Assembly: GCA_035514595.1 (NCBI GenBank)
Contig: DATKAX010000172.1
Span: 1-57,891 of the forward strand
Direction: 5' to 3'
Length of the DNA stretch: 57,891 nucleotides
Origin: Burkholderiales bacterium
Lineage (GTDB): Bacteria > Pseudomonadota > Gammaproteobacteria > Burkholderiales > SG8-39
Under the pieces are notes generated by a model. That model ran no database searches. It was not told where the DNA came from and saw nothing but the letters and a program-made list of their open reading frames with translations. Position 1 is the first letter of the stretch. The number at the start of each line of letters is the position of its first letter. Positions 1-5,164 of this stretch are shown piece after piece. Made by a program: the position numbers and the translations under genes.

Positions 1-210
1 GGCCGATCGAATCCGTACTTACGCCAGCTGAGTGATACCAAAGTCCTCGAACACGGCGCGGAGATTGTGCGGCGGTTGATGCCTCACCTTCTGAAGGGCG
101 GCCCCGGTTACGTTGCGGAGGTCGTCAACCCAATGATGGAAGAGTTCACGCACTTTCAAGAGGAAGCGAGCCATCGTGCCCTGGACTGGCGAGACATACC
201 GAAGCCCTAA
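1..210 (+). CDS. 3' end of a cassette-borne hypothetical protein (5' end outside the window)
   Basis: Frame 1 is open from base 1 to TAA at 208-210 (...LEHGAEIVRRLMPHLLKGGPGYVAEVVNPMMEEFTHFQEEASHRALDWRDIPKP*). Its composition is more protein-like than the Arg/Trp-rich antisense ORF 19..309. The stop codon sits inside the R'' box of the following attC, as is common for cassettes. Confidence 0.4.
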   Translation, partial: GRSNPYLRQLSDTKVLEHGAEIVRRLMPHLLKGGPGYVAEVVNPMMEEFTHFQEEASHRALDWRDIPKP

Positions 211-271
211 CCACCGCATCCACGCCGACGCGCGCAAGAGCGGCGCGCGCGGGTGATGCGGAACGTTGAGG
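205..271 (+). repeat. attC site (67 bp) of the first, truncated cassette
   Basis: R'' is CCCTAAC (205-211), L'' is CCGCATC (214-220), an inner stem pairs CGCGCGC with GCGCGCG (229-235/243-249), L' is GATGCGG (255-261), then a 3-nt spacer and R' GTTGAGG (265-271). The first base of R'' deviates from the RYYYAAC consensus. Confidence 0.6.
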
Positions 272-487
272 CTGTAGAAAAAGTCCCGTGTCGAACATCG
301 GCGCGTCACAACGCGATATGAGCAATTCTTCGATAAGATTGGACGTCGACGGTCAACCGAGCTGCGATCTCCTCGTAGCGTGCCTCCTCAGGCCCGACAG
401 CGACAATATTCGAAGTGACCATCAAAAACCCAGGTGTTTCGGCGGTGGGTCGACATTGACCGTTTTCGGACTTTTTCTACAGCCTCG
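266..487 (+). mobile_element. 222-bp ORF-less insert at the attC crossover point (non-coding cassette or MITE-like element)
   Basis: The insert is bounded by G|TT on both sides (265-267 and 487-489). Its termini are perfect 19-bp inverted repeats, GAGGCTGTAGAAAAAGTCC (268-286) and GGACTTTTTCTACAGCCTC (468-486). Removing it restores a canonical attC ending ...GATGCGGAAC-GTTATGC. It contains no convincing ORF. A weak internal attC candidate has R'' GGTCAAC at 350-356 and R' GTTATGC at 487-493. Confidence 0.5.
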
Positions 488-526
488 TTATGCGGCTTAC
501 TAACCGTTGCACGAACGTCTAATTTC

Positions 527-943
527 ATGGCCGTTGCCGAAAAGCTGTGCTGGGAGGTTTTGACGAGCTGTAAGGGGCAGTCCGTCTCGGCCAAGTGGCT
601 AAAAGGTGATCACGCAACCGATCCACCGCTGGAGAGCGCTTTGCCGTTGTTTGTCTTGGAACGCGATTTGGTTTTGCGGCATACGAAGCAGCAGATCGAG
701 GACAGCCTGTACTTCTTGGAAAAACGTGGCTATTTGCGCCGGCATGGGTTTCACGGATTAACGCGAGTGGTCTTTCAATTGTCCGATTCCGCCCTTTCGG
801 TGCTTGAGGCAGGCTCGTTTTCCGCAGAGGAGCAACGCGCCTTTCGCGAAGCCCTCTTCGACGCGAAGCAGCCGGGGCTCTGGGGCTTTAAGTTCAACTT
901 GGGTGAGGCGTGGAGACGGTTCAAGAAATTTCGCACGCGCTAG
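527..943 (+). CDS. Cassette-borne hypothetical protein, 138 aa (possible winged-helix-like segment)
   Basis: This is ORF 434..943 trimmed to ATG 527, because the cassette boundary G|TT lies at 487/488. I recognised no family. The segment YFLEKRGYLRRHG is reminiscent of a wHTH recognition region. The stop TAG at 941-943 lies just before the attC. Confidence 0.55.
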   Translation: MAVAEKLCWEVLTSCKGQSVSAKWLKGDHATDPPLESALPLFVLERDLVLRHTKQQIEDSLYFLEKRGYLRRHGFHGLTRVVFQLSDSALSVLEAGSFSAEEQRAFREALFDAKQPGLWGFKFNLGEAWRRFKKFRTR

Positions 944-947
944 CGCC

Positions 948-1073
948 GCATAACAACCGGTTGCAGCGGACGGTGACACGGCGTGGCGGGCGCGCCGCAA
1001 GTGCGGCATTTCATTCTGCACATGCGGCGCGCTGGACACGTGGTCGCGCCGCCGCTGAACCGGAATGTTAGGT
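948..1073 (+). repeat. attC site (126 bp)
   Basis: R'' is GCATAAC (948-954), followed by spacer AA and L'' CCGGTT with one extra G. The right arm is AACCGG, spacer AAT, then R' GTTAGGT (1067-1073). Confidence 0.7.
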
Positions 1074-3397: not shown

Positions 3398-3410
3398 TTC
3401 GCGTCTGGGC

Positions 3411-3475
3411 ACCTAACAGCACGCCGCACACGGACGCGGGAACCTGATCCGATAAAGTGAACACCTCGACCTAAC
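3411..3475 (+). repeat. Degenerate attC remnants: two orphan inverse-core boxes without a core-site partner
   Basis: ACCTAAC occurs at 3411-3417, and its flank TGGGCACCTAA matches the start of the cassette at 2981. A second ACCTAAC occurs at 3469-3475. No GTTRRRY box or complementary L' arm follows either one. Confidence 0.5.
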
Positions 3476-3489
3476 GCTTGGCAGCAAAG

Positions 3490-4243: not shown

Positions 4244-5164
4244 TCACTTCGGCTTCGCCTGCGGGACGAGAAACTCTACCGCGCCCTCGATCGAGAGCTC
4301 GATGCGCCCCGGCGGCGCCGGGAAATCCTCCCCCGGGGCGGGCCAGATGCGGTCATCGATGTGCATCGGATAGCCGTTCCAGGCGAAGCTCAGGCGCCGG
4401 CCGCGCCGCGAGGGAAGCATCGCGATGCGCGGCTTTTCGTTCTGCCAGCTCGCCAGAATCTCGTGCAGCCTGTCGCGCTCGGCCTCGCTCACCATGACGA
4501 TCTCCATCTGGCCGTCGCCGGGCCGGATGTCGGGAGCGAGATGCAGGTTCGGGCCGACGTAAGGCAGGATCATGGCCTCGAACATCAGGAACTCGCCCGA
4601 GACGTCCATGCCGTCGAGCGTCGCCTCGAGCGCAACCGGCGCGCAGGCCTCCAGGTCGTCCTTCAGAAGCTGCAGCGCATAGGCGACCTTGGCGTCGGCG
4701 CGCTCCAGGCTGCGGATGGTCCGGCTGGCGTCGGCGCGCGGCACCGCGCAGGCGAATAGCCCCATGCCGACGGCCTCGACGAACCCGCGCGTCCCCCAGG
4801 GTCCCGTCGCCTTCCCGATGTCGAGCTTCACGCTTCGCGGCTCCCGCCAGCCGCGAACGATGTCCTCCACCGGGAGCCCGGCGAGTCCCAGCGTTCGCGC
4901 GATGTTGTTGGCCGTTCCCGCCGGCAGCGGCGCCACCGGCGTGCCCCGGCCGAGCATGCGCTTCGCCACGCGAGCGACGGTGCCGTCGCCCCCGGCCACG
5001 GCGACGAGCTCCGCCGCCTCGTCCAGCACGCGGTCCCAGCCGTCGTCCTTCGACGACTGGTAGCGCACGCTGTGGCCGGCGTCGCGCAGCACGGCGAGGA
5101 GCCGCCCGATCTCGCCGCCTCCCGGGACGCCCGCGCCGGGGTTGTGGATCAGCGTGACGCGCAT
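4244..5164 (-). CDS. Diacylglycerol-kinase-family lipid kinase (YegS/BmrU-like)
   Basis: It has a GGDGT motif ([13 protein letters not shown]), an N-terminus [12 protein letters not shown], and PLPAGTANN. The start was moved to ATG 5164 (residue 52 of the track ORF). Confidence 0.85.

Follow-up and report, generated by a model that had tools for sequence, protein, structure and literature searches.

A 219-bp MITE-like element with IS1182-family termini in the GTT crossover triplet of an integron attC site

Results

A 219-bp Element with Perfect Inverted Termini Interrupts an attC

The window, by which we mean the whole 57,891-nucleotide stretch of DNA that was analyzed, spans the initial 57.9 kb of contig C172, one of the 472 contigs in the draft genome of a Burkholderiales bacterium. 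An integron cassette array on the + strand, of which the promoter-distal portion is present, takes up its first ~3.5–4 kb; behind each ORF of the array lies an imperfect palindrome that runs from RYYYAAC to GTTRRRY (Table 1). The integron is split over contigs, with the array running from base 1 of C172 and a fragment of the integron integrase gene lying at the end of C86 (G000:C86:4305-4904, - strand), where it is cut by the contig end; the fragment scores 319 bits against TIGR02249 (cut-off 265). At the other end of the array, the last attC-like site (window 3400–3480, GGGCACCTAAC...CGACCTAACGCTT) has an R''-like box without a clear GTTRRRY partner and is undetected by the attC model described below, and the array end may be degenerate.

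An earlier note, made from the letters of the DNA, had described perfect 19-bp inverted termini in the crossover triplet of one of these sites. A repeat finder returned the same two arms, GAGGCTGTAGAAAAAGTCC on the left and GGACTTTTTCTACAGCCTC on the right, as 100% complementary over 19 nt with 181 nt between them. When up to three mismatches were allowed, the 19-mer occurred at these two places alone in the window, and 100 shuffles gave an expectation of zero chance matches. The arms delimit a 219-bp element flanked by direct copies of GTT, and the insertion point is the R' core of the attC of cassette A. The element begins only 268 bp into its contig, in a fragmented draft, a position that would suit a contig-end assembly artefact, or the arms might be a chance palindrome; against this, no chance match is expected, and independent assemblies as well as metagenomes contain full-length homologues that have the same flanks, which leaves an artefact or a coincidence with a negligible probability.

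To describe the interrupted site, we trained an attC covariance model on seven further attCs, one a sibling from the window and six of them empty sites reconstructed in other organisms; the training alignment contains compensatory changes in 11 of 17 stem pairs. The model is small and lineage-specific, and also misses the long attC at 946–1072. It scores positions 206–271 at 50.2 bits (E 2e-13), equal to its own training member, and the neighboring attCs of the window at 35–50 bits. When the flanks are joined (267 to 490), they read ...GATGCGGAACGTTATGCGGC and fold on either strand as a 66–67-nt R''-L''...L'-R' hairpin like those of the sibling attCs at 1919–2003 and 2918–2984, in agreement with the earlier proposal that removal of the insert restores a canonical 67-bp attC; the target thus has the form of an R''-L''...L'-R' imperfect palindrome ending in GTTRRRY. 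The right-hand remnant also belongs where the earlier note had placed it, at the start of the next cassette, since TTATGCGGC at 488–496 complements GCCGCATAA at 946–954, the R'' of that cassette's own attC. This attC contains an imperfect 39-nt palindrome at 971–1051, and its R'' and R' boxes were read from the sequence. Congeneric genomes yielded uninterrupted attCs of the same type (...GCGGAACGTTAGA...), all of them paralogous; an orthologous empty site for the 219-bp insertion was not found among them.

The open frame of cassette B (434–943) reaches back beyond the likely ATG at 527 to an in-frame GTG at 434, inside the element, so that the element could in principle give cassette B an upstream alternative start.

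Table 1. Features at the interrupted attC (window coordinates)
Feature	Position	Strand	Description
3' part of cassette A ORF	1–210	+	Open frame off the 5' end, cut by the contig start, followed by the attC at 206–271
attC of cassette A through left GTT	206–267	+	R'' CCCTAAC, L'' arm, center, L' arm, spacer AAC, GTT; model 50.2 bits
Left GTT, 3-bp target duplication	265–267	.	Direct repeat of 487–489; GTT..GTT or AAC..AAC at paired ends elsewhere
219-bp non-coding element, probable MITE of the window-type subfamily	268–486	+	Full-length homologues 217–221 bp; no coding signal
Left terminal inverted repeat GAGGCTGTAGAAAAAGTCC	268–286	+	First 16–17 nt equal the ends of IS1182-family elements
Right terminal inverted repeat	468–486	-	Perfect complement of 268–286
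Right GTT and original R' tail (GTTATGC)	487–493	+	G|TT is the cassette B boundary; pairs with R'' in folds
Cassette B	488–1072	+	ORF end 943, likely ATG 527; 127-bp attC at ~946–1072

The Termini Are Shared with Autonomous IS1182-Family Elements

We searched for the terminal sequence in other genomes and found that termini of the form GAGGCTGTAGAAAAAG bound both insertion sequences (ISs) of 1.74–1.84 kb and short elements of ~100–220 bp with unrelated interiors. The pattern GAGGSTGTASAAAAAG was present in 25 of 401 genomes of the same order, and a reversed pattern, which served as the control, gave 4 hits in all. Nearly all of the ends found in this way carry ..YTAAC| or |GTTAGGC.. on the outside. 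Some are paired 100–220 bp apart and mark short elements; others are single and are followed, ~95 nt on, by an ORF that starts MARYK..D.SPRFL.VDL..QLLPG.FEHALNHLIDHELDL.

The earlier note had raised the question of a full-length IS with the same termini. Such elements exist as whole autonomous copies of 1740–1842 bp, in which both ends are present and the flanks are GTT/GTT or AAC/AAC, and the first 16–17 nt of the window element are identical to the ends of these transposase-bearing elements. The 517-aa transposase of one full-length copy (G177) exceeds the cut-off of the NF033551 'IS1182 family transposase' model (275.7 vs. 270 bits) and contains the Pfam domains DUF772 (PF05598), DDE_Tnp_1_6 (PF13751) and DDE_Tnp_1 (PF01609); an N-terminal 70-aa transposase remnant, searched alone, gave no Pfam hit. 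The copy in Marinobacter algicola DG893 likewise has an intact transposase of this clade. A 43.5%-identical relative is found in Pseudoalteromonas piscicida on a 1.3-Mb replicon that is classed as a plasmid in a plasmid collection, and there too the termini are GAGGCTGTAGAAT.., the flanks are GTT and an attC-like palindrome lies upstream.

The short elements (99–190 bp) have the termini alone in common, their interiors being unrelated. Among the loci compared, the interior of the window element is also unrelated to the IS interiors, with which it shares only the termini, and no autonomous IS with the subterminal sequences of this subfamily was found among these loci. In some full-length ISs (L046 534-2179 and L049 489-2077), the open transposase frame extends back to nucleotide 3 of the element and the GTT+GA junction makes an in-frame TGA just upstream of it; the equivalent frame in the MITE ends at the TAG of GTTAGG.

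Insertions Concentrate at the GTT of attC Sites across Several Phyla

To describe the target more broadly, we scanned one genome per species for exact matches to the 17-mer terminus, which returned at least 123 ends. Among the ends listed, AAC lies directly outside 46 and GTT directly outside 33 (79/123, or 64%), where ~3% would be expected if all 64 triplets were equally likely. Paired ends show a 3-bp GTT duplication adjoining GTTAGGC, and the other listed ends, in Firmicutes and similar taxa, have the appearance of chance matches. The carriers among the listed matches belong to Rhodocyclaceae, Nitrosomonadales, Burkholderiales, Marinobacter, Paraglaciecola, Agaribacter, Lysobacterales, Binatia, Thermodesulfobacteriota, Polyangiaceae, Gemmatimonadota, Nitrospirae and Pirellulales, and the lineage ranges over Pseudomonadota, Myxococcota, Thermodesulfobacteriota, Planctomycetota and soil metagenomes. 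Judged by the sequences that flank its copies, this is an IS1182-family lineage whose insertions appear to be confined almost entirely to the GTT triplet at which integron integrases cut attC.

The subfamily to which the window element belongs gives the same picture at higher resolution. Full-length homologues were found in four genomes (G254, G119, a Pseudomonadota MAG and, as a decayed copy, a Pirellulales MAG), and these are 68–79% identical to the window copy. A search of metagenomes with an interior pattern gave 39 matches in 36 contigs, whose names resemble soil-sample records; the pattern consisted of three invariant interior blocks of the family itself, so that the conservation of these blocks is ascertained and is not evidence of function. 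Genomes and soil metagenomes together provide 24 distinct full copies of 217–221 bp at 23 distinct insertion sites. The earlier note had held that an element found as a single copy everywhere would argue against its proposal; the element is single in its own genome, and at least 23 distinct sites are occupied elsewhere.

Every copy with readable flanks, when oriented by its interior, reads ..CGTT|GAGGCTG...CAGCCTC|GTTAG.., so that its orientation with respect to GTTRRRY never varies. Together the sites give the target profile ACGTT|AGGC, in which position -4 is C at 22 of the 23, and the reconstructed target sites that have a long enough upstream flank give textbook attC folds. We also considered the motif GTTAGCTCT(A/G)CGTT, which lies to the left of some insertions, as a possible footprint, and rejected it; it is the L'-spacer-R' of one attC type and is also found unoccupied. 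The full-length ISs occur in both orientations, 9 to 6, and in the transposase tree orientation follows clade in 13 of 14 cases, which amount to two or three independent contrasts at most. Since orientation tracks the transposase clade, it points to the mechanism of insertion and not to selection afterward, such that oriented insertion would be a property of each lineage.

Several copies have lost their left 14–23 nt and sometimes the left GTT too (L188/L206, L194, L193/L199 and L176/L195); they are fossils without two functional ends.

The Interior Is Non-coding

The earlier note had called the element ORF-less. Taken literally this does not stand, for there are open frames on both strands and a minus-strand peptide can be aligned across copies; in the sense that matters, it does, as no coding signal was detected. 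The pN/pS ratio between the two sub-types, calculated over 18 gap-free family members, lies between 0.77 and 1.00 in all six frames, and we rejected a candidate small ORF in the interior on the basis of a pN/pS of ~1, the lack of a conserved start or stop and an internal stop in one copy. Searches of both strands of the element for a sigma-70-like promoter or a terminator found none, and Rfam gave no match anywhere in the window. A fold of the alignment supports the terminal stem and includes a handful of co-varying pairs in a subterminal helix. This interior covariation is marginal and the terminal stem alone is solid, and a structured RNA was rejected as a description of the interior. We conclude that the interior is non-coding and without demonstrated function.

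These data bear on the possibility that the element is a MITE (a short non-autonomous element with inverted-repeat ends) whose fixed orientation and conserved interior reflect selection for a function in the array, either as an RNA or in the expression of the downstream cassette. The interior can indeed be aligned at ~68–79% identity across genomes of the order Burkholderiales, the Pirellulales MAG and soil metagenomes, a few pairs of the subterminal helix co-vary between the two sub-types, and the frame of cassette B extends into the element as far as GTG 434. However, the covariation reflects no more than one or two events separating two clades, the orientation of the full-length relatives tracks transposase clade (13/14), left-truncated fossil copies persist, and the searches for a promoter or terminator, an Rfam match and a coding signal were all negative, so that we regard selection for such a function as improbable.

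The Element Is Very Probably a MITE and Not a Cassette

Because it combines perfect inverted repeats, a GTT duplication, termini shared with IS1182-family elements and many copies in different attCs, we assign the element to the MITEs, as one of the options in the earlier note had it; it is small and non-coding, as MITEs are, its termini are those of an autonomous IS and its copies occupy multiple sites. In our judgment, it is very probable that the 219-bp element is a non-autonomous MITE that carries the ends recognized by an IS1182-clade DDE transposase and was inserted in trans at the GTT of an attC.

The alternative that has to be weighed against a MITE is a non-coding integron cassette moved by the integrase, which was also among the options of the earlier note and whose recombination site would be either a weak internal attC (351–493) or the palindrome formed by the joined ends. 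In favor of a cassette, G|TT borders the element at either end, a cassette lies on each side of it, and all subfamily copies have one orientation relative to the array, as cassettes do; oriented insertion into GTT would lead to the same expectation. The internal attC, which the earlier note had drawn with some reserve through the box GGTCAAC, does not survive in detail: the box lies at 351–357 and not at 350–356, the small covariance model gives no hit within 272–500 on either strand at E values up to 10, where the neighboring sites score 35–50 bits (the model also misses the long attC at 946–1072), and the R'' box reads GATCGAC in the other sub-type, which is about half of the family. We therefore rejected this candidate site, and with it an ordinary attC at 350–493; no 3' attC of the element's own was found with this model. 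Joining the ends instead would give a circle with GTT in the loop of a hairpin and no AAC partner. Furthermore, the same termini are found at the same triplet on transposase-bearing IS1182 elements, some of them in the opposite orientation, and they are all that the 99–190-bp elements with unrelated interiors have in common. Based on these observations, a cassette origin is highly improbable.

Returning to the MITE, we propose that its 19-nt terminal repeats are the ends recognized by the DDE transposase of an IS1182-family clade, which would act on them in trans. Cut-and-paste chemistry of this kind would open the GTT in the R' core of the attC (consensus ACGTT|AGGC) with a cut staggered by 3 bp, after which strand transfer would join the element to the cut target and leave the GTT duplicated. 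The transposase may read its target as a sequence, ACGTTAGGC, as a folded attC hairpin, or as both.

The Host Genome Contains One Copy and a Deleted Relative

Neither a further copy of the element nor a partner IS was found in the window's own genome, in which the element is single-copy. A 15-nt match to the terminus in contig C265 was rejected, since it falls within what looks like coding sequence and does not mark the end of an element. The assembled genome contains no intact IS1182 transposase, and its sole IS1182-like sequence is an internally deleted relative (L210, at G000:C276 ~4400-5080), in which the N-terminal ~78 aa are joined in frame to the C-terminal ~53 aa of an IS1182-family transposase. 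The termini of this relative, GAGGCTGTGTGAAAAC / GGTTTTTACACAGCCTC, are related to those of the window element but distinct, its flanks read ..GACC|..|GACC.., and it lies outside any attC; it belongs to a different sub-lineage, one with another target. As no intact partner transposase is assembled in the genome, the window copy is probably stranded and immobile, unless a partner lies in unassembled sequence.

Discussion

Relation to Known Elements That Target Hairpins or attC Sites

The IS1182 family includes the staphylococcal IS1272/TnSha1, and the autonomous relatives described here likewise score above the IS1182 cut-off and contain DUF772 and DDE domains. IS1272/TnSha1 insert into hairpin-forming inverted repeats, with no primary-sequence specificity and no target duplication, and delete part of the hairpin (PMC4923244); some IS1182 members are described as targeting palindromes (Siguier et al. 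2015, as cited in PMC4923244). Since an attC is a palindromic structure that forms a hairpin, IS1272/TnSha1 provide a precedent for hairpin recognition. In contrast to them, the present clade hits one triplet (ACGTT|AGGC), duplicates the GTT and leaves the attC arms intact.

Two other groups of mobile elements are specialized on attC sites. The IS1111-attC group likewise consists of insertion sequences; these have a DEDD (IS110-type) transposase guided by a non-coding RNA, as well as subterminal repeats (PMC11187229), and are not known to duplicate their target. The lineage described here differs in its DDE transposase of the IS1182 family, its terminal repeats, its 3-bp GTT duplication and its MITE derivatives, and does not belong to the IS1111-attC group. 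Group IIC-attC introns are also mobile and home to attC in a fixed orientation (PMC3001079); unlike these retroelements, which consist of a ribozyme and a reverse transcriptase, the element here measures 219 bp, matches nothing in Rfam, and shows inverted repeats with a duplicated target.

Short non-autonomous elements with inverted-repeat ends have been associated with integrons before, as the MITE-like structures that flank class 1 integrons (Gillings et al. 2009, by way of its citation in PMC8618304) and as TIMEs (PMC13367494). Such elements flank and mobilize whole integrons or resistance genes and are not reported in attC cores, whereas the members of the present family lie inside the attC, at its crossover triplet. 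A full-text search, from which most subscription journals and ISfinder were absent, found no published link of IS1182-family elements or MITEs to attC cores, nor a published description of an attC-targeting DDE/IS1182 lineage with MITEs; an earlier description may exist outside the literature covered.

The known attC parasites are the IS1111-attC insertion sequences and the group IIC-attC introns, and a DDE IS1182 lineage with its swarm of MITEs appears to be a third kind. It offers a natural system in which to study how a DDE transposase reads a recombination site that is defined by structure or by sequence, orientation included.

Consequences for the Integron

An occupied site retains much of the original attC. 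The left junction still scores as a full attC with our model, as the GAGG with which the element begins follows the left GTT in place of the R' tail. When the occupied site is folded as a single strand, the prediction is a three-way junction: the L''/L' stem persists, the terminal stem carries the element out as a side hairpin, and R'' pairs with the right-hand GTTATGC, leaving the left GTT without a partner. Of 10 occupied subfamily sites folded on the bottom strand, 8 are predicted to form the same junction. Because R'' re-pairs with the right-hand GTT in these predicted folds, the site may still be usable by the integrase.

Two metagenome contigs are of interest in this respect. L177 1-386 and L179 591-976 (Ga0075434_100473358 and Ga0075433_10377574) share 386 bp at 99.7% identity, and the common stretch comprises a cassette end, its attC, the MITE (with one SNP) and GTTAG, directly after which different cassettes follow. 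A cassette exchange at the right-hand G|TT would produce such a divergence, which could also stem from two independent insertions of the MITE into the same attC. It is conceivable, if on balance rather doubtful, that the element is tolerated and spreads as the attC that it occupies stays a substrate for IntI, its perfect terminal repeats allowing it to form the side hairpin, with the MITE riding along with the upstream cassette. If this were true, the MITE would be a genuine integron hitch-hiker, mobile by means of both the transposase and the integrase.

The insertions bear on the decay or continued activity of cassette arrays. They also split attCs, and we predict that cassette-calling software may as a result miscount cassettes or report spurious non-coding ones. 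Some arrays contain more than one insertion: two diverged copies of the subfamily occupy neighboring attCs of one array in L174 (5424-5642 and 8170-8388), and L190 (the same locus as L196) carries two copies that are ~92–94% identical, at ~777-998 and ~1739-1953, again in neighboring attCs.
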